The position numbers and the translations under genes are program-made. The notes beneath the pieces are model-generated. The model was not told the DNA's origin. It ran no database searches and was given only the letters and a program-made list of their open reading frames with translations. DNA of 64,000 bases from Tubulanus polymorphus (taxonomy: Eukaryota > Animalia > Nemertea): positions 14,812,950 through 14,876,949 of the forward strand of contig NC_134029.1 of the NCBI RefSeq assembly GCF_964204645.1. The letters run 5' to 3'. Positions 2,411 to 50,640 of this stretch are shown in pieces (position 1 is the first letter of the stretch; each line of letters opens with the position of its first letter).

Positions 2411-3800
2411 TTTAGGAAGATAAGATTCCGTTTCATTTTGGGGTTTACTTTTACTTAGTTGTGTTAGTTGTACGCTAAACATTGTTTAGTACTCTTTGAC
2501 TACCTGCCAAGATATGTGTTTATTATTGTATCTCCCGGTAATTATTATGTCTCCCCAGTGAAGGGGAGACATATTTCACTCATCCCCAGTTGAGGGGAGA
2601 CATTTTTCACTGTGTCGTTGTGTGCCATGAGATGTCCCCTGACACATCATTAGTGTGATACAGGCTGCAATTCTTGATGGATTTTTCTCAATCTTAGTGT
2701 GAGGATTGGGGCAGGTGAGATGTCCACCCCGATTAAAAATAAAGGATATCAGCCATCAAACATGGCCATAAGGGCAGCAATCTTGAATTTCTAGTTAGCA
2801 GAATACACTCTTGAATTATTTATAGTCTTTCATGAAATTTAGTGGGTTGGTTTGGAATTGTAAGATGTGTGGCCACATCGAAAATAAAGATAGTCGGTTA
2901 ACACAATACAGCCTTCAATTCTTTTTAGATCTTCATGAAACTCAGTTCGAGCATTGGGGGAGGTGAACTGCCTTTAAATATGGCTTCCAGCAGCCATCTC
3001 GAATTTCTAGATAGTTTGATACGGCCTATAATTCTCAATGGATTTTCATGAAATGCGCTGAGTAGGATTGGCCAGGTAAGATGTGCGCCCCTTATGATAT
3101 CAACCAAATATGGCTGCCACAGTGGCTATCTTGAATTTTCTTGTTAGGCATTTTTAGGCCAGCCGTAGGCTGAGCCTATTACTATTTAAATGGAGCGAAT
3201 TTAAATGACATGGTTTCCAGAGCAAAGTCTCTTTGTCTGTGCAACTGAGCATATATTCATACAAATCATTCATTACAGCATTATCCATTCTCCAAACTCT
3301 ACGTAGCTGAATTTAAAAAGAGGGCCTTGTTAAGATTTATATGAGCTTTTTTTGCGAATATCTGATCGCAAAAATATTGGTTTTGAAAAGCAAATCAGAA
3401 AACAAAGACTCCTCTATGATTGGCTTAGCCGCAGAAATCAGCAGGGGTTAATGTGTACCTGTTTTGTATTTCCGTCGAGTACTGTACCCTTTCCTATGGT
3501 GTTTGCCAATATTTTCTAAATTTGGATTGATCGCCAATGGTTTTTCTATACGACCCGGCCCTGCGGTATTGCATTTAGCCACCGGCGAAATCCGCCATCT
3601 TTTTTCTTGGCCTTCTCGCAGTAGAACGCGTTGGATTTTTTTTGCTGTAAAAATCTGGGAATAAGGATTTTAGGGAGTTTTCACTCTCATAACGGTGAGT
3701 CCGTTCGGTTTGGGGGTTATCCCTGGTTTCTATTTTTCCGTAAGAATTTTATTTACAAATATAATTTGATTGAATCGATTTGATTTGTAACAGGATAATT

Positions 3801-5996
3801 ATGCCACCCCCTCCTAAGGGTCAACATCGTGGCGGGGAGGGATGCGGGCATTTGTTTGGCGCCTGGGACAACCACGATTCGTGTGCGTCGTGCAGGCGCA
3901 AATCCGGTCAAATATGTGCAAGGAGCAATCCTTGCAAGATTTGCGAGGTGTGGTCCGAGGACCTTTGGCTTCGGGCCGATAAGGCTCTTAAACTAAGAGA
4001 TCGTCGTCGAGTTAGCAGGGATTCGTCGGTTTCGTGCCAACCGACGTTTCTAATCCGGTTTCTTATCGTAAAGCGGAGCGGTCGCCGGTCGTTCAGGTAC
4101 GATCGGCTTCCCAACTCCGTTCACCGGGGAGGAACGCTGGTTCACCGGCACCGGTCTCCGGTCATTCACCGGTCTCTGGTCGTTTGGCCGGTTCAGACTA
4201 CATGTTCGGAACCGAGCGCGCGCCGCGGTAGTAATGAACGGCCCGCACCGGTATGGTTGGTACCGGTCCGGTTCGGGCACCAGTCCGGTCCAGACGTCGT
4301 CCGGTTCAAAACATCCGGTACGTTCATCGTCTGATTCTGATCGTCGCTCTGGGGATAGAGCTCGCTCTCCCACTAGATTTAGACGCCGTGAGCGTAATAA
4401 AGGAGCAAGATCTCCTTCTCACAGATCAAGAGGTTTGATCGCGAGAGGGACTACGATGGTTATTGTCGGAAGTTTCGCCGTCGGTCTTCTCATCGTTCGT
4501 CGACGTCGGTTAGCGATGAAGGCGATTCTTCTGGTAGGTCTCGATCCCATTCGAGGGACCGTCACCGAAGTCGGCATGATCGTCGGGATACTGGAAAATA
4601 CCTGACTCAGGAGGATTTCCATGTATTTGAAGAGAAAATTTTAAACTTGTTATCTTCGTCGCAACAAGTCACTGCAACCTCTACAACAGGTAAGCCTATT
4701 CCTGATTGTCCGGTTAGAAGTTCGCCAGCCCACTCAGTTCTTCGGAATTCTGACTCTGAATTCCTGGATGCTGCGGTAGGGTCTGATTTCAATGAGGATC
4801 CGGTCCCAGAAGCGGCAATTCCTTCTGGGGTCGTTCCTGTCGCGAGCAATTGTGGGTTGCCCCAGACGATGGGGGCTTCCCTGGCTCGCAATGTATCTCC
4901 GTCCCGTTCAGTTTTATCCAAACCAGCGGGGGAAATGCCATTTAGAGCGATGATAAGTGAGTTCTTTGTCAAGCACGGGGCAACTCGCACTAAGCCCACA
5001 GCAGCTCCTCTGGTCGGTGAGTCAATGGAAGCTTATCGCCCTCCGGACTACGATCTTAACGTTTTACGGGAATCCTCAGCGGTTTCGAGAGAATGGGCTC
5101 GATTGGATACGCAATTATGGGGTGAATGTCGGCCTGGAACATTTTCATTTCCCCCTCCAGAATGGGGTATGAAATCTGGGAAATATTTTAGTTCAACCGA
5201 TCCACCTATAGGCGCATTTCGCTCGGCGTATTACGCAACTCCAGGTGCTGTGGATCACAGTCATAACTGCCTGGATGCTGATTATACTTTGATCAGCCCG
5301 GATACTGTTACAGCACAGTCGGGTATTCGTTTGCCTAAGTCCGGTTTGGTCGCCATGACGTCAATCCTGGACAATCTTTCCAGGGTTGGTTCGTTTCAAG
5401 ATATGGCACTTAAGGTGTTGACGGGTGAGCTTCGCGAAACTCACGCCGCCGTTCATGCGGGCTCCGACCCAGAGTCAGTTGCCCTAAAACTGGAGGGAAT
5501 GGACCGGATTATCCAATCTTTGGCTCGGTCTGTTTCGCATGTAATTCCGTTGTCGGTTCGGGGTCAGGCTAATCTTGTGTTAGCCTCCCGTCAGTCAGTG
5601 ATGGACTCCAGTTCCAAAGCTCGTCTACCGGATATGGTGTCCAATGCTTTGCTGAGAGCCCCATTGGGGACGTCTTCACGTCTCTTCTCCGGTTGGTGCG
5701 CTCCGGTTTCCGCAGAGCTGAGGAAGATTCAGGAGGTTCAGGCCAAGTCCAACCCCCGAACTCCGTGGAAAAAGCGTTCTGGTCCGACGCCGGCGGCGCA
5801 AGGTTCGGCACGGACGCAAACAGGACCATCTCAAACTTCAGCGCTTTCTCAGGCGGCTTCGGATGCCGGTTGGAGAACTAGCGCGCAACTTCAACAATCG
5901 TGTCCAGCCTCATCCGGTTGTAACAGTTCCGGTTCGTATCGAGGCAAGGGGAAGGCTCCAAAAAGGGGCTCTTCCTTTTGGAAAAACTCGAAATGA
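3801..5996 (+). pseudogene. DIRS gag-like ORF1 (frameshifted)
   Basis: N-terminal Cys/His cluster CGH..DNHDSCASC..C...PC..C..W, an S/R-rich linker broken by frameshifts, then the 449-aa open segment 4647-5996. Confidence 0.75.
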
Positions 5997-6017
5997 ATTC
6001 TTGGGACCAGTGGGAGG

Positions 6018-7272
6018 TTGTCTGCAGCAGGCAGTGGCAGGTCCGACCTTTTTGGAGACGGTTGGCCCTCCCGGGTCGTCTCTCGTGGCTACCGTCTCCG
6101 TTTCCTAAGGCGACCGCGCCTGATGAGGTCACCTCCCGACATGCGGCCAAAACCAGGTCAGGAGGCCTTAATCTCTCCGGCTCTCAAGGAATTGGCCGAG
6201 AAGGGAGCGATAGAACCAGTTTGCAACGAAACTTTTCCCGGCTTGTTTTCTCGAATATTCATGGTACCAAAGGCCACAGGGGGTCAACGGACAGTGATAG
6301 ATCTGTCATCCCTCAATCGGCACCTAGACATTCCAAGGTTCCGGATGACCAAGCCCAAGGACGTGATTCAAGGGCTCCGTCCGGGTCAATGGGCGGCTTC
6401 ATTGGACCTGAAAGATGCTTACTTTCAGGTTCCAATTCACCCAAAATCTCGGCGATTTCTCATGATAAAGTGGAAAGGCCGCCAGTTCCAATTCAGGTCT
6501 CTTCCATTTGGCCTCAGTACGGCCCCGTGGGTATTCACCAAGTTGGTCAAGTCAGTTCAGAAGGTACTTCAGTCAAGGGGTGTTCGACTGTTCGCTTACC
6601 TCGACGACTGGTAAATAGTCGCGAATTCGGCTCAGGAATTGTCGGGAGGCAATGACCTCAGTCTTGGACTTAGTCCATCAGCTAGGGTTCCGCGTAAACA
6701 GGGAAAAATCTCAGTTGACGCCGGCCCAACAGTTCACTTATCTCGGCATGGACTTCGATCTCCGAATCGGCAAAGTCTTTCCGTCTATGGCTCGAGTAGC
6801 CAAACTTCAAGAAGCTGTAGCGGGAGTGTCCACAACCCCGAGAACAGCTCGTTACTGGTCACGGCTTCTAGGCTCCATCAGCTCCATGGGTCTGGTAGTG
6901 CACTTAGGCCGCCTCAGAAGCAGGCGCTTGCAACAATATTGGTAGGTCTTCTGGTCTCAGTCGAAGGGCAACTGGGAGACCTTGATTCCCGTACCTCCAA
7001 CCGATCTAAGTCCGGATCTTCAGTGGTGGGCGGCAACTACGAATCTTCGGCTCGGGGTGTCACTAGCCCCGTTAGAGGCTCCAGTTCGTGTATTCACGGA
7101 TGCCAGTCACCAAGGATGGGGGGCACATCAAGAGAACCGAGTCAAAGCCGGGAGATGGTCTCGCTACGAGGCCACCAACCACATAAATTTCCTAGAAATG
7201 CTGGCCGTGTGGAAGGCCCTGAAGTTCTTTCACAGGAGAGTGGAGGGCCACCACGTTTGGTTAGCCACAGAC
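6018..7272 (+). pseudogene. DIRS reverse transcriptase/RNase H (disrupted)
   Basis: SLDLKDAYFQVPIHP, LPFGLSTAPWVFTK, YLDDW followed by TAA (6612-6614), a +1 frameshift near 6645 and TAG at 6943-6945. RNase H motifs VFTDASHQGWGA and HINFLEMLAV; truncated after WLATD. Confidence 0.93.
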
Positions 7273-7273
7273 A

Positions 7274-7675
7274 TGTCCTGTGCGGGCGTTGTGTTTCTAT
7301 TTAGATCGCTCTGCTTCACGGAGGGGTTCACGGGAGCGGTTATTTATTCCGCTGCTGGATCACCTAAAGGGTGATATTTCGCGGGACACAGTGGCCCGAT
7401 GGGTCTCTTCACTGATCAAGGGCATTTTATTGAAGGAGAATCTTTCCTCGGAGGGAGTGGTTTCTCATCAAGTGAGGTCTATGGCTACTTCCTGCGCAGC
7501 CTTTTCGGGTGCTCCGTTGGAGGAATTCTGTCGGGCCGCCTTTTGGAATTCTCCATCGACATTCACATCATTTTATTTACAGGATGTTTCAGGCCAGTTA
7601 GGCTCATTAGCTTCACTTGGTCCTGTTGTCATGGCTCAAGGTGTCCGTTCTTTCCGATCGCACCCTTTAGTGTAG
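7274..7675 (+). pseudogene. C-terminal half of DIRS tyrosine recombinase
   Basis: CPVRALCFYLDRS...SHQVRSMATS...AAFWNSPSTFTSFYLQDV (H-x-x-R, W and catalytic Y). The N-terminal half is missing. Confidence 0.9.
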
Positions 7676-9468
7676 AATATTTATGTTGCATTATCAGGAT
7701 CACAGGGGGTGTATCCTTGTACATAGTTTGGGCTCATATCTGCAAGTATTAATTTCGCAATATTCTGGGGGGGCCCTGAGCTTGACGGACTCACTGGGGC
7801 CAACAGGTCTTCCCTGTGCTACAGTGCTCCATTCCGTGCTTGGGTAAGTGCTCTCTTTTTCCGTCTTACCTTGCGTTTGAGCGGTGGTTTTTCTATCTAC
7901 CTTTCCCACCATCCTTGTGCTAGGCTAGTCTAGCAAAAACCATAGGAAAGGGTACAGTACTCGACGGAAATATTACAATTTTTGGAACTAAAATTTGTAT
8001 TTCTGAGTAGTACTAACCCTTTCCTATGGTGGGAATCCCGCCCACCTGCCCCGCATAGCTGTTTTTTTTTGGTCTGCTATGACGTAAAAAGATGGCGGAT
8101 TTCGCCGGTGTCTAAATGCAATACCGCAGGGCCGGGTCGTATAGAAAAACCATTGGGGATCAATCCAAATTTAGAAAATATTGGCAAAAACCATAGGAAA
8201 GGGTAAGTACTACTCGGAAATACAAATTTTAGTTCCAAAAATTGTAATTTCTAGATCTAAAATTGTATTTCAAGATCGATTTCTGTGAAAGCTTTTGTTG
8301 ATTTGGTTTTTGGGAGGAATATTTTTAATAGCACTACAGAAAATATCATTGACCGATGTGCAAAGTCCGGAAAAAATAGCTTTTTCTTAAATCGGATAGA
8401 TGACCTTAATATGCTAATTAGCCATATGCTCAAACTACAAATTCAATCAAATTTTATTCTGCATAGAAATATCAAATCCAATTCAATTTTGTTTTATTGA
8501 GCAAATTTCAGAAAATTCTATTCTATTCCGCATTAAAATCAATAAGACCAAGGGAAAAGATTTATCTGAGGTATTTATTCTTGCCAGATCCAGTCGCTGT
8601 CTGTGCTACTTTTGTATTCTACGATTGTATTGTGTAAATTATTAGGTATTGACTCTCAGCTGGGAGTGTATTTTGACAAATTTAAGAGCTATCAATTGGA
8701 TCTGTTTTCTGTATCTGCACGAAGTAGTTACGCGATCGCGTAATGACGTCTTGCGCGAGTTGTTACTTCGCGCAGAATAAACCTGCACGAGCTGTGATGA
8801 ACAGGTGCGTGATCGCGTATTGATGTACTGTACCGCGCGAGTTGTGATGAACAGATTTGACTTTATTCAATTAATTATGCAGCGAACTGTTAAAACATCA
8901 ATATTAATAAAAATAAGATTTCCACTATTTGAATTCGTCAAGAAGGGATATTTAGAAACGTTGTTATTTGTAAATTATCGCTAAAAAAAGCTAAAGATTT
9001 AATGGTTTTGATTTTATATGCCTAAAGACGATGATTGATTACATTGATGTAGTGTATCAAACTTGTAACTTGTAGTGTATCAAAATAGTGATACGGTACG
9101 TGAAAAGTAGCTTAATTACCTTTATCTATTTATTAATCCTAATGTCATGAAATAATCCTGGTCTTGTTATATGATTATATTAGTGTATTCCAACATGTGC
9201 CTAAGACGATGTCCTAACGTAAACTGACCCGTTCTCTAATATTATATTAATTCTATCGCGCGCGCGAACTTAAAGCCCGACGCACACGAGGCAATTTTAG
9301 TCGTAGTGCTGCGACCGATTTTTATCTCACCGAACGCCGCGCACCTCGTTCAAAAATCTAAAAATATAAACCATTTTTATTTGATAAAGCAAAATATCCA
9401 AAACGAAACTACATCTCCTAAACGTCTTAACAAATAAATGTATCTAGGGCACTTATACTAATATAACG

Positions 9469-10035
9469 TTACTTAATGTGCCAATCGTATGCTGACTGAC
9501 AAATTCCGCGGACGACTTCGGACCACCTACACCCTGCCTTGTTCAGTCTAAAATCCGATCGAGGGTTCTTGGATAGCAGGTCTGCAGGCCACCATGGCAC
9601 TCTTTTGGATTCATCACCCTAGCTCGGACAGTTTTTTCGATGCCTCATCATATTTGAATGAAATATCAGCGTGGCACAGAGCGATCTAACTTCATTACTA
9701 TTCAGATCACGGATCTCCATGTTTTCTTTTCATGGAAATAACTCACTCATTTTCGGCAAATCTCCGTTAGTTTCCTTTGATGCCGCCGTACCCGCTGGTG
9801 CCGAAAGCGCGTGCTCCACAAATTTCTGCCGAATGTCATTCGTTGCACCTTCTGTTACCTTTGTGGAAAATGTGAGGGATTCCAGTTTGTTTTTGTTGTG
9901 TTGGTTCTTTCCTTCCTCTTATCCGCAAAGAATGACCGCATATCATAATTTCTTCGAAAATTTCTCAGCATACTTCGTTGCCATATGCCACGCATGTCGT
10001 AAGTCTGCAGTCATTTTGTTTGAGTCCGTATCCAT
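9469..10035 (-). pseudogene. NRF1/erect wing/P3A2-like DNA-binding-domain gene, intronless, 4 in-frame stops
   Basis: 189 codons without frameshift: ...DLPKMSELFP*KENMEIRDLNSNEVRSLCATLI...PS*GDESKRVPWWPADLLSKNPRSDFR...WSEVVRGICQSAYDWH, versus NRF1 ELPPL...VDKMTQAQLRAFIPEML...PGWGKESCKPIWWPEDIPWANVRSDVR...WTQALRTIVKNCYKQH. Confidence 0.85.
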
Positions 10036-10151
10036 GTTGTTAATTGTTGGTCGTTGAGCGTTGGTCGTTTTCCGTTGTAAATGATGTTGTAAGTGATGTT
10101 AAGTGTTAAAAGAATCAAAGAATACCGTTTAATGTGGTGAGAAATTGCAGA

Positions 10152-10159
10152 TTTTTATA
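10152..10159 (-). promoter_or_regulatory. Candidate TATA box of the NRF1-like gene
   Basis: TATAAAAA on the minus strand, 117 bp upstream of the ATG at 10035. An AATAAA lies on the minus strand near 9376-9381, downstream of the stop. Confidence 0.4.
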
Positions 10160-10267
10160 CGGTTCTTCTATCATTGTCTTCAGAATTTCTAGACCAATTA
10201 TTTTACATAGGTCTTCTAGACACGATAATTATGAAGAAATTAGGGTTCCTGGTACAATTGGCAAACA

Positions 10268-10968
10268 TTGTGCTGGTGTTTTAAAATAAATGGGCGAATG
10301 GGATTGCTAATTATGCACATGCCACAATTTCTGCTTCGTTTTACATTTTGGCTACTTATTGTAAGAAAATTACTCCCATTTGAATCTAATTCTAAAGAAT
10401 TAGGTACCGATTATAATGATTTCATTGTTCGTTTCCTCAGGAGCCAACACTGGACGGGTACATCAGAGTTTAAAAATGCATTTACATAGTAGTTTATGCT
10501 AGACTTAAAATTAGTTAACAGCAGAAATTCATAACAAATGTGTATATTCATAGTAATCAAGTTATAGCCAGACAGGCATATTCCATCCGACAGCGCCAGG
10601 TGCCTTCAGAAAAATGCAAATGATAAATTTCAAATATTTTCATATATATATAATGCAGGAAGGAGATCGAATTTATGGCAAAAAATTAGGGCTTCCATCT
10701 CATGCCGGGTAATTAAGTAAATTCCAAATAGAAATGCTGGCCAACCCATTTTCTTAGCTATCGGGTCTAAAGATTACTTGTTTATAGAATTATTTGAATA
10801 CTTTATAAATAGGTGCCCGGCTATGTGTAAAATTAACTTAGGAAAAATGAGAAAATATCATTTTTGTCTTATATCCCGCAATAAATTGAATCCAACAACT
10901 AAAAAATGCTAACTACAGACCACGAAAAGAGATATTTTTCTCTTCAATCTGTGGGTGTTCAACGTTAA
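10268..10968 (+). pseudogene. Highly decayed Crypton/DUF3504-like tyrosine recombinase relic
   Basis: Collinear motif remnants across frameshifts: FWLLIVRK..FESNS..IVRFLR..SEFK; VYARLK; L*-QTGIFHPTAPGAF; SHAG*L; IELFEYFINRCP; FCL; YFSLQSVGVQR*. The catalytic R and the HxxR/Y region are not visible. Confidence 0.45.
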
Positions 10969-12378
10969 GGTTTAACGTGTTATTTTAATATTTTTTATAT
11001 ATAATGTTCGCGTATAATGTTTATTCAAAGTGTTTACATTTGTATGATTTCATAAGTAATGAACAGAATTGTTATATAATACTCGTCTTTTCTCTTGATC
11101 AGTATACGTGTATTCAATGTTCTCTGCTAAACTGTCGATTTTCTCGTCAGTTTGTCATTGTCGGAAAATCCTTTGAAAAAAGTATCACTTGAAATCCCGC
11201 CCGAAAAATGATCTCGCTAAATAGAGGTAAAATAAAATCCATGCGTCCGCAACAGAAGTCTTTGATAGTACGAAGTACCGGGTCTAATAACCTCGCGCAA
11301 CTGATCATGAAAATATCCTAGCTGCGCGAAGTAACTACTCGCGCAACTGATCATTATGCGATCGCGTAACTGGTTCGCGCAGATCGTCAGTTTCTGACCT
11401 TCATATACCTGAATTTAACCCACAGAATGCATCATCATTTGCCATTTCATGAAAAGCTGACAGGCTGGCCATAGTGCCCCTTGGGGCTCTTGGTTTTTTA
11501 ATTTATTTACTTGACTGTTGATTAACAGAGAGCTGTATATACTTGAGATGAAACTGGAATTCTTAAATGACTGAATTCTTGGCGATCAATCTGAAATCCA
11601 AGTGATTCATGAAAGAGCTCAACGACTTTGGGATCTTAGATTCTTAACTGAAAAATGTCATTTTTTAATTTTTTTGTGGATTCCTTTGAATTCTGCCTAA
11701 AGAAATTTTTTTCATATTTTCCCTTTACCCCACCAAAGATTTTCTCCTAAAATCCCGAAATCCAAGTAATTAAGAAAAAATTGCCTTAGCATGATACATT
11801 CTTGATTGATTTACATGAAACTTGATGTTAGGATTGAGGAAGGTAGGCTGTCCATCATTATCGAAAATGGAGGTCATCCGCCATAACATATGGCTATCCA
11901 TGAAACTCGATGTGAAAGTAAAGACCATGTGTGTTAGACTTGAACCAATAATTCTTACAATCCCAATGAACAATTAAGTAAACCCTCCTGTCAGGAAGTA
12001 TACAATATGTGTGTTAACCTGTCTTCAATTTCTTGCCCTCACACCGTTTGCTTACCCGGGGAAGACATGACGTAGCCTCATTCTAGTTTTGGACTGTATC
12101 AATGTAGTAATTTTTACAGTCATTTTGGCTTGTATCAATGTTCTAATTTTAGGTCGTGGAGTGTACCAAATTTGCTGGGGGACCATTCATTTCTTATGTA
12201 CGCTTTATGGGAGGGGAGGGGTAAGTGCAATGCGTACTGTAATGCCTTAAGTATATGAAGAAATGGTAATTTTGCGTACAGGGGGTACATTTTTTTCAAA
12301 CTCGGTACACAAGCAGGGCATTACTTAAGACAGAACCCTATTCAATTTAGTTGATGTGAATGCAACTGTTGATCAATC

Positions 12379-18833: not shown

Positions 18834-19106
18834 TTTGAAACTAAAATTTTTCCTAGTAGTACTTACCCATTCCTGTTGTCGTAGTCCCACCACCCTCCTA
18901 CCCCGCTTAGTGGTTACCTTGCAGCTGCATTAGCAGAAAAAAGATGATGAATATCGCCTGTGACTAAATGCAATACCACAGTACCACGGGCTGGTAAAAA
19001 ATCTCTGGTGATCCATCCAAATTGAGAGAATATTAGCAAAAACCACAGGGAATGGTAAATAATACTTGGAAATACAAATTCTAGTTCCAAAAATTGTGAC
19101 ATTTCT
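18834..19106 (+). mobile_element. 3'-terminal fragment (half ICR + right ITR) of a diverged DIRS relative
   Basis: Aligns to 7981-8252: AAACTAAAATTT..AGTAGTACT-ACCC-TTCCT, AAAAAGATG..CTAAATGCAATACC..GGAAATACAAATT-TAGTTCCAAAAATTGT. Confidence 0.85.
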
Positions 19107-27740: not shown

Positions 27741-29155
27741 AGGCCAGTCGTAGGCTGAGCCTATTACTATACAAATGGAGCGAATTTAAATGACATGGTT
27801 TCCACACAAAAGGCTCTTTTGCTTGCCAAGTGAGGGCATATTCGAACAAATCACGTATTTAAGCGTAATCCATTCTCGGAATCGTAGCGAGCAGAATTTT
27901 GAAATAGGGTCTCATAAAAATGTTTTCTGCATTTTTCACGAAAGTTAAATCGGGAAAATTTCAATTTTTATCAGCCAATCAGGAAGTTGTGTCTTCCCTG
28001 TGATTGGTTTATCTGAAAATATCAGCAGCTGTTCACGTGAATTATCGCGATTTCATTACTGGCGCTTTTGCGCATGACGTCATGTATCAACACGCGACAA
28101 TACTTCCGCGTTCGCTACGTGTTCGCTGATTGGCCCATTTACTGGGAAATTCCACAGAAGCCTAATGTGGTTTGTTACAAGCGCTGTGATTGGCCCGACC
28201 CGATTCCGGCATGGCTTTAGCTTAGTGGGTTCGAATCCCTTGACGGGTGAAGATGATGGATCCTATCAATATCTATTGAAACAAATAAGTTTCCCGGTTG
28301 GGCAGCCGCGGATATCTACCGGAAGTGTTCCGGTTCGATATTTCGAGGTTTCTTTGAATTTTGGAGTGATATTGAAATCCGGTAAATACCAGCGGTAGAT
28401 TGTGAAAACCCATTGCATGATATTTGTATTACTTAATCAACGAAAAGCGTCGGGGCCGCGCCAGGAGTTTTCGTGATTCAAGTAGCGCAATAGCCTACTT
28501 CTTCGTGTTCGTCCACCTCAATTTTCACTCCGCCGATCTCTGACACGGCTCTGTCCCCGTCGGCGCTGTGATTGCACTTTCGTACCACCAAAATTTTTTA
28601 TTTCTATATCAGGGAGGTCTGGAGAATAAAAAAGTCAAAATTTGGATATCACATAGGCCTGATTTCATCGAATAAGTCGACCATGGTCGTTACGTTTCCG
28701 TGCTTATTACCACCTAAAACCGTCTGAACAATTTTGTCACAACCAACATTTCAACAGAGGGTATTTTTGACCAGGCAATTATGACGCACTTGGCAGCCAT
28801 CTTGGGGTCATCAGTACTCATTCGTAGGTGGAAAAAAAGTTTTTCCACATCATAATTGATACTTAAGCATATTTTGCTACTATAATCAATTGGAAAGTTG
28901 TAGCTCATGACATGTTCTATGATCGAGGTGAGTTTCAAGCTCATTGGTTTTTTTATGGCCACCAGGGGGCGTTGAACAATACAATAACTTAGTATTTCTA
29001 TATTACATTCGTTCCTGCTGTCTGTGTTAACACACGATTTTACTATGTAAATGATATTGAGCAGGGAGTGTATATTGATAAATATAACCCACAGATTACA
29101 TCATTTATAAAAAGCAAATCTGACAGGCTGGCCATTGTGCCCCTTGGGGCTCTTG
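27741..29155 (+). mobile_element. HINE family B, apparently uninterrupted copy
   Basis: Both termini present (AGGCCAGTCGTAGGCTGAGCCT ... CAGGCTGGCCATTGTGCCCCTTGGGGCTCTTG), inserted in a TTATT run. Confidence 0.75.
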
Positions 29156-30039
29156 TTATTACTTTGTCACACTATTTTCACTAAAAGAACATAGGCTTTT
29201 TTACCTTGCCACAGTTGCCAATACAATCTGTATGATATCCTTCAGCTCACTTCGATCTACAAATACTCTGTGCGTATTATCATGAATCAACGTTACAAAA
29301 GCACTTTCGGGCCGTAAACATCAAAAATTGGGCCCTATTCAATGAGACCACATGTTTTTCTGAGTCGTCATCCCGAAATCCAACGTAGGTTGCTCGTCAC
29401 TTCGATTATCAATTCAAGTGTAAATAAACAAATTAATTGCCGCAAGACGTTACATTCAGCCGCGGTCCTCAAACAGTAAATTTTGACAATTAGCCATTTT
29501 CTTCATCAGTACACTTAACCGACCAACAGTATATAATTTACTGCTCTAAATATTATAAGCTTTGTCAAGCTGGAAAGATCGATGAATCAACTTGTGTCTT
29601 TACATCCTCGTTCCGCGGAACCGCTGCGGGGTTCTCTTGCCATGAGAATCAAAGCAAGTACATATAAATTTATTACACAGCCATCTCAAAATGGTCACTT
29701 TTCAATAGTTGACTTTTAGGAACGATGTGTTTTGAGAGTAGCTGCTATGGTAGGAGTTACTATCACAAAGTCACTGTTTACAGACAGGTGGTTTTACAGT
29801 CACCTCTACTGCTAGTGTGCACTATCGAAACCAGATGTTTTAAAATGGTCACTTTTCTATAGTAGACTCTTCGAAACAGCCACTATATAAAACCAACCGA
29901 ATTGAAAGGAATACTATTTCAGAGTGACTGTTTTGAAATGAATACTACTGGAAAAGTAGCCGATATCGTTAATTGCTTATTGTTCTCAAGTGGCTACTAA
30001 GTAGAAGTAGACGTTTGGGCTCAAAAGTGCGATAGACAT

Positions 30040-49629: not shown

Positions 49630-50640
49630 TGGTTACTGGGAGTCACTGAGCACACAAAGTCCCTCTGCCCTTATTGCAGCTCGAGGTCGGAGTCGTCCCC
49701 TGGCCGGTTGCCCCTCGTCTACCAATTCTCCGTCGGATTCATCTTGTTCTGAGGCAGTTTGCTCAGCGATAGTCAGTGTCTCAGCACGAGCAGGGGTTTC
49801 GGCTTGGTTAATCCTTCCATTCCGAGGGTCCGATTCCACCGGAATTAGCCGATCTCTTTCCTCCTCCGAGCTCGAAGGACAAGAACTATGTTTTTGTGCG
49901 ACTGGGTCATGCTTCATGGTGCCATGCCTAGTGGAGGGAGGTTTGTTCAGGGGGACCTGAGGATTTTCACCATCATCCGACCTTATTATGGCCGGTTTCA
50001 TGCCGTTGAAGTGGACAACTTTGGTCTTGGTCTCTCCTAACTGAGTCTCCACCCGATTATTTACCTCAGTTAGGTGCAGTGTGACCACAAACGGGCCATA
50101 CCACTTCCTATGGAATTTCTGGGCCTCCACAGGCTTGACATAGTGACTGTATAGCCAGATTATATAGTCAGACTGTAGCCATTAAAGGCAGATTCAATTA
50201 GGCCCGCGACACGCCGCACATTCCATTGTGAACTGACTTGGCCATGGACTACTCACCACCATATCAATTGGAAGACTTATTTCTTATGTCCAAACATGAA
50301 AAAGGATGGGGTCTTCTGCGTTGATGACTGGACACTCGATGGGAATGCTATTAAGCATCCACGAGTGGTCATCACAGTCTTTCCCATTCTCATCAACCGT
50401 CAGTCAGCATCGCTTTGATTGATTTTTTGAAGTTTTCAACTTTTCCGTTCCTATGAGGGTGGAAATTGCGTTGGATACAGCATCCGAAATTGAGGATGGG
50501 TCCTCTATCATCAACGACGCCCTGGCTGTGTCCGGGAGATTTACCCCTGCCAGGAACGGTCCCTAGCCAGTTCGTCCTGCACTTCCCATGTGGTAGGGTA
50601 TGTGCATAAGGCCAGTTCTTGTAATTCATCTGCGTAGTGT
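49630..50640 (-). mobile_element. Ty3/Gypsy integrase relic
   Basis: FHPHRNGKVENFKKSIKAML, SVQSSTQKTPSFFMFG..SLPIDMV, and the GPY/F module KFHRKWYGPFVV...VVHFNGMKP. Confidence 0.85.

Follow-up and report, generated by a model that had tools for sequence, protein, structure and literature searches.

A decayed Kyakuja-like transposon copy carrying an NRF1-type gene and subterminal half-site arrays in Tubulanus polymorphus

The insertion and its family of copies

The stretch of DNA analysed here, hereafter the window, comprises 64,000 nucleotides (64 kb) of contig NC_134029.1 of the nemertean Tubulanus polymorphus; it is repeat-rich eukaryote DNA, and no host gene was evident in it. Our subject is an element of 2,726 bp at 8686..11411, a decayed copy, probably with internal sequence lost, of a DNA transposon that is present in many copies, as judged from read depth and from the minority status of its letters. 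Inside it lie a broken gene for an NRF1-type dimerisation and DNA-binding protein on the minus strand (9469..10035), a decayed, frameshifted, coding-like relic on the plus strand (10110..10960, limits approximate) and two subterminal arrays of short repeated units. One copy of AATTTAA abuts either boundary on the plus strand, at 8679..8685 and at 11412..11418.

The DNA on both sides of the element belongs to a host repeat, the left part of which (8253..8685, plus strand) aligns to two paralogs in the window, while the right part (11412..11492, plus strand) is 78-79% identical to those paralogs at 97-171 and 29081-29165. Together, the two flanks make up one interrupted host repeat in this alignment, and both paralogs have a single AATATAA where the insertion sits. 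To this sequence were aligned raw DNA reads deposited under the same species label (run X5). The left part of the host repeat was covered to a depth of about 2,100, with 1,937 loose ends before 8253, and 1,794 loose ends lay behind 11492. The empty site was directly seen in 413 reads with 164 start places, in which 8678 is joined to 11412 with 7 letters shared, i.e., with AATTTAA in single copy. The first-pass annotation of this DNA had described a discrete 2726-bp insertion between two copies of AATTTAA that are single in the paralogs, and both boundaries, as well as the single AATATAA of the paralogs, agree with that description. The probability that 7 bases agree by chance at a fixed boundary was computed to be about 9e-5 for this pair, and the empty-site reads and the reads of the family together rule out chance or an assembly artefact as the source of the insertion. 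A further joint, 8681-11416, was found in 5 host-repeat reads that carry 8 other letters at the centre of the target site, which makes them 7 longer than the empty site; this may be either a variant of the repeat or an excision scar.

For a survey of copies, the reads were aligned to 8664-11433, where interior depth was 20-85 throughout. The family probably comprises roughly ten to a few tens of copies. Most reads differ in letter from the window at each of the 39 sites tallied, out of the 40 listed among 382 variant sites (site 9280 was omitted as it is overlapped by another repeat), and at six of the 39 the letter of the window was carried by only 1-2 reads. Exactly behind 11411, 36 reads leave the element into mixed flanks with an agreement of 0.53, and the majority flank of these other copies does not begin with AATTTAA. 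With flanks that vary and in their majority do not open with this sequence, the 7-mer behaves like a target duplication rather than a recombination core that travels with the element. The first-pass annotation had proposed recombination at such a core; it should then recur in the flanks of other copies, and its absence from the majority flank leaves the proposal unsupported. The right boundary is common to the copies, and the left end is common to them at least as far as 8703. In 5 reads, 11411 is followed by the opposite strand at 11251, a joint that the insertion of one copy into another would produce.

The copies also differ internally. Deletions that remove the NRF1-type gene join 8830 to 10173 in 3 reads and 9378 to 9918/9921 in 12 reads, whereas tandem duplications of the subterminal units join 11308 to 11271 in 31 reads and 11401 to 11293 in 7. 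No end-to-end joint of the kind left by a circle was found among the 15 of 17 joints listed, although a dead family would show none anyway; nor was a second copy of the element found within the window. It is to be noted that a 50-bp piece at 9273..9323, of depth 124-137, with loose ends on both sides and mixed flanks before 9273, is shared with the end of another, more abundant repeat family; it begins after TAA and presumably resembles a Harbinger-type end. The right end of the element (11268-11411) reached a depth of 127 against 33 at the left end, about a fourfold difference, so that shorter derivatives that have the right end in common probably exist.

Ends, plus-strand relic and transposon class

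The left outer end (8686..8712, plus strand) begins with GAGC, and the right outer end (11385..11411, plus strand), at the last base of which the 36 reads end, closes with CCTG, or CAGG when read inwards. Just inside lie the left subterminal array (8713..8840), made of T-R-C-G-C-G-A units, and the right one (11293..11384). They contain the two arms of a 63-bp inverted repeat, at 8713-8775 and 11322-11384, which are 86% complementary and are each placed 27 bp inside their end, while the outer 27 bp of the two ends agree at 8 places only; in both respects the first-pass annotation was accurate. The pattern of the 63-bp inverted repeat matched 0 metagenome loci. The 63-bp repeat was also considered as a true terminal repeat and rejected, because other copies reach 11411. 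Considering that the outer 27 bp differ though both ends are common to the copies, terminal repeats were probably never present.

These features were compared with those of the published transposon classes. Kyakuja elements have 7-bp duplications, CA..TG ends and no terminal inverted repeats (Kojima 2025, PMC12730594). All of the 29 Kyakuja rows examined, out of approximately 38 in Table S1 of that paper, start with C/G-A-C/G (CAC 17, GAG 7, GAC 3 and CAG 2), and all seven GAG rows begin with GAGC, like the left end of our element. Reading inwards from its ends, the element has GAG and CAG, and the chance of C/G-A-C/G at both is about 0.002. Of the four Kyakuja features that can be tested, three are in fact found in it, namely a 7-bp duplication (in one insertion and its empty site), the ends GAG...CTG, and the absence of terminal inverted repeats. 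Together, these make it a match to Kyakuja, within the KDZ group, and we consider it quite probable that the element belongs to this class; what can be said more firmly is that it works like a Kyakuja element, a likeness that falls short of proven membership.

The likeness to Kyakuja extends to the start, the TG at the other end and the carriage of extra genes (PMC12730594). Described Kyakuja members are fungal and algal, and the tabulated fungal ones measure 9-33 kb and carry TET/JBP genes (PMC12730594); the present element, in contrast, comes from an animal and is a dead copy of 2.7 kb, with a subterminal inverted repeat of 63 bp and a gene of NRF1 type, and its transposase is only putative. 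Zisupton and Dileera are placed in the same proposed KDZ group, and accessory domains or genes are common among them, but their duplications are 8 bp, and those of two Cryptococcus elements 4-8 bp; moreover, Zisupton and the Cryptococcus KDZ elements have true terminal inverted repeats, unlike this element (PMC12730594, PMC12810828).

The plus-strand relic, where read depth reached 85, gave little to the homology tools. The three plus frames of 10160-10962 matched no Pfam family at E<=5, and 19 sub-frames matched none at E<=10; there was likewise no family in NCBIfam, no match in PDB with the two frames searched, and 0 homologs among 349 longer candidates in a word-based protein search with a relic frame. 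The codon-position bias of read variants singled out no frame, and one read contig diverges from the window at 10367 over a length of 203 letters. By eye, a cysteine pair, W-x-N-G-I-x-N-Y and G-V-F-H (the last in most reads) follow each other in this order across the frameshifts, an arrangement that we take to be that of the front part of animal KDZ transposases. On this presumed resemblance, the relic is likely to derive from the front of a transposase gene of KDZ type, the catalytic part of which would have been lost.

The first-pass annotation had instead called the relic recombinase-like and assigned the element to the Cryptons, i.e., to tyrosine-recombinase elements that are excised as a circle and recombine at a short core, here of 7 bp. 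One plus frame reads G-S-K-D, and the letter that turns it into G-S-K-N is present in 18 of 20 reads; we take G-S-K-N to be a motif of DUF3504, and it would speak for a Crypton, but R-W-P takes the place of the nearby R-C-P in 20 of 27 reads. No DUF3504 match was obtained, and the tyrosine-recombinase tail H-x-x-R...H...Y is absent from all six frames of the element, a test that is limited by decay. A minus-strand H-S-L-R string belongs to another frame of the NRF1-type gene and was taken as chance. Cryptons do have short direct repeats and no terminal inverted repeats; the direct repeats are, however, 4-6 bp long, and none were found in animal Cryptons (PMC3212892, PMC13465315). The lack of terminal inverted repeats is common to Cryptons and Kyakuja and does not discriminate between the two. 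CryptonF has a DNA-binding domain, GCR1_C, that also occurs in host genes (PMC3212892, PMC13465315), so the two share that much in outline; the element differs from the Cryptons in its 7-bp repeat, in flanks that vary among copies immediately behind 11411, and in that a tyrosine recombinase was not found. A Crypton origin is thus improbable, and neither this class nor the recombinase-like nature of the relic is supported.

Another cut-and-paste group with 7-bp duplications and weak or vanished terminal repeats, carrying the same NRF1-type gene, was also considered; the non-TIR (lacking terminal inverted repeats) Mutator-like, Dada-like and P groups make such duplications. They are found in hAT7 families as well (PMC12730594). 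The relic matched no family by the tools used, and the two ends match at 5 places over their first 7 bases, which could be a worn-down terminal repeat. Nonetheless, agreement over the outer 27 bp is low although both ends are common to the copies, and the C/G-A-C/G ends fit Kyakuja. Dada-like elements target small-RNA genes, whereas the target here is an ordinary repeat. Overall, such a group is an unlikely source of the element.

The NRF1-type gene and its candidate binding sites

The minus-strand frame 10035-9469 encodes 188 amino acids with 4 stops. It matched the Pfam family Nrf1_DNA-bind (PF10491) with an E value of 4.5e-7 and 30.3 bits, above the gathering cut-off of 23.5, and human NRF1 in PDB (8k4l) with an E value of 6.7e-5, which bears out the NRF1-like DNA-binding domain proposed from the first pass. 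In the 8k4l alignment, R117, N157 and R159 of the element gene align to R206, N242 and R244 of NRF1, which are the residues through which NRF1 reads TGCGC half-sites; the isolated NRF1 domain binds half-sites, and spacers of 0-7 bp are tolerated (PMC10810270). Across the gene, read depth was 27-53. Of 74 reads across the first of the four stops, 54 have a sense codon there, and other copies carry small insertions at 9631 (14 of 34 reads) and 9646 (12 of 31) that together amount to one codon, from which it follows that the ancestor of the family had a more complete gene. The NRF1-type gene, therefore, belongs to the element family.

Host NRF1 is a protein of about 500 amino acids. The element gene, by comparison, is highly diverged, occupies one frame of 188 amino acids without the activation half, is multi-copy and resides in a mobile element; what it has in common with NRF1, Erect wing and P3A2 is the layout of dimerisation and DNA binding, with the base-reading residues kept (PF10491; PDB 8k4l, 8k3d). 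An exhaustive search of 1.84 billion proteins with the NRF1-type reading returned two matches. One of these, an LRR/NACHT protein, was dropped as a repeat artefact, and the other, P0005 (E 1e-12), is an intact NRF1-type protein of 211 amino acids on a contig of 1,184 bases. P0005 is 31% identical to the element gene, scored 54.9 bits against PF10491, of which it covers positions 34-207 (the element gene covers 72-203), and has also kept the three base-reading residues. No host NRF1 was found among the 1.84 billion proteins at E<=0.001; on this ground, and because the gene is multi-copy, a recent pseudogene of host NRF1 was rejected. Other searches added no relative: a word-based protein search gave 0 matches among 57 candidates for the NRF1-type reading and, for P0005, only itself among 84 candidates; P0005 or the alignment of the two proteins found no relatives in viral and prokaryote contigs, and the NRF1 motif pattern found none in viral contigs. 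A structure model of P0005 was poor (pLDDT 52), and its top fold match, NRF1 8k4l with an E value of 0.013, was not counted as evidence. The nearest Atlas clusters to P0005 contain proteins of about 210 amino acids, one with 101 members, mostly from Mollusca (score 0.89), and a second with 96 members, mostly from Arthropoda (score 0.87); both are leads only.

The units in the arrays point to a possible target of this protein. Exact T-R-C-G-C-G-A units number ten in the 307 bp of end sequence, compared with one in the interior of the element and six in the remaining 61 kb. TGCGC half-sites occur 6 times in the same 307 bp against 0.24 expected, and three more are completed by the majority letter of the reads, at 8719 (32/38), 8787 (29/37) and 8810 (19/24). 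We regard it as moderately probable that the element protein, as predicted from its sequence, bound the TGCGC arrays just inside both ends.

The gene may alternatively be passive cargo, in which case the arrays would be bound by the transposase or by host factors and their likeness to half-sites would be due to chance; such a view would agree with membership in the Kyakuja class. Short GC palindromes (GGGCCC, GGCCGG), noted by eye and uncounted, are also numerous in the 5' ends of fungal Kyakuja elements, the cargo of which is TET/JBP and not NRF1 (PMC12730594); copies without the NRF1-type gene exist, and the array unit differs from the 12-mer recognized by NRF1. On the other hand, the three base-reading residues have survived in a protein that is otherwise distant from host NRF1, its best relative is a short NRF1-type protein, P0005, rather than host NRF1, and the look-alike clusters in molluscs and arthropods, as leads, point the same way. 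Passive cargo, hence, appears to be a possible but rather doubtful explanation.

Neighbouring elements, proposed mechanism and meaning

Other mobile DNA is also present in the window. A GC-rich retroelement at 3774-7900 encodes a reverse transcriptase (5997-6611, E 7.5e-12) and an RNase H (6946-7371, E 1.9e-6) in overlapping frames; from its layout and its last frame (7265-7672, for which Pfam gave no match) it is presumably DIRS-like with a recombinase tail. On the minus strand, 49636-50181 holds a fragment of the integrase tail of an LTR retrotransposon (Integrase_p58_C, E 5.6e-5, below the cut-off). Directly to the left of the host repeat lies another inverted-repeat element (7933-8252), with 31-bp arms at 8000-8030 and 8190-8220 and with relatives at 3463-3604 and 18834-19097.

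Taken as a whole, the explanation towards which we lean, with somewhat more confidence than doubt, is that the element is a dead, non-autonomous copy of Kyakuja type, and that its NRF1-type protein likely bound the element's own ends. A KDZ transposase supplied by a longer relative would cleave the element at its GAG and CTG termini, and insertion with a 7-base stagger would produce the 7-bp target duplication; the plus-strand relic would represent the front of the KDZ transposase gene, its catalytic part lost. An NRF1-type dimer may mark, and perhaps bridge, both ends, standing in for long terminal repeats. Its role there would be akin to that of the Myb/SANT partner in Harbinger elements. 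PIF/Harbinger and Nuwa differ from the present element in three respects: their duplications are 3 bp long, they have terminal inverted repeats, and their partner protein has a Myb/SANT fold. They offer a model of how it may work, in that a transposase is combined with a separate DNA-binding protein (PMC12730594). In an alternative role, the NRF1-type protein would switch on the two head-to-head genes of the element.

Several observations weigh against this explanation. First of all, the transposase: single frames of the frameshifted relic gave no CxC5, CxC6 or KDZ (PF18758) match in Pfam, and KDZ-style motif patterns gave either 0 matches or 4 and 40 chance matches, none of which tblastn linked with the relic (best E 0.48). 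Secondly, the comparison of ends was with the first 400 bases of the Kyakuja rows, so that the 3' ends rest on the paper's statement of CA..TG, and the end criteria derive from fungal elements (PMC12730594). Thirdly, neither the left boundary of other copies nor 7-bp duplications of their own were among the 6 of 75 loose ends listed, and short reads do not allow both flanks to be assigned to the same copy. As to the NRF1-type protein, the joints 8830->10173 and 9378->9918/9921 leave some copies without its gene, and the searches of metagenome, viral and prokaryote contigs found no intact relative that bears both genes. The windows for half-sites were picked after looking, and the repeated units of an array are not independent. 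NRF1/EWG domains bind GCGCATGCGC as a dimer, and a full 12-bp NRF1 site with 0-1 mismatches is absent from the element; the NRF1-like sites that had been annotated at both ends, therefore, stand as an enrichment of TGCGC half-sites and not as full sites. The best palindrome, which is the central one, consists of ACGC halves, and to halves altered in this way human NRF1 shows only weak binding (PMC10810270).

We found no published case of an NRF1-type gene paired with a transposon, although an entry in Repbase or Dfam may exist, and the parts consulted of the literature on Crypton, KDZ and Kyakuja elements, including PMC12810828, PMC9297572, PMC7641404 and PMC8226300, contained no NRF1 pairing. 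More tentatively, this copy may represent an undescribed, widespread animal lineage of Kyakuja, in which a KDZ transposase would be accompanied by a small dimer of NRF1 type, whose reading of the TGCGC arrays within both ends would replace terminal repeats in end recognition; the NRF1-like clusters of about 210 amino acids in molluscs and arthropods would then be such partners, and host NRF1/Erect wing could share their origin.

How KDZ elements without terminal repeats have their ends recognized is not settled in the literature consulted. With a partner protein whose fold and base-reading residues are known, and with arrays to match at the ends, end recognition becomes directly testable. The copy described here is itself dead, and its value is that of a pointer to a family. 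If the proposal is true, the NRF1 domain, that of a conserved host regulator, would join the DNA-binding domains common to transposons and transcription factors, and a function would be given to orphan short NRF1-like proteins.

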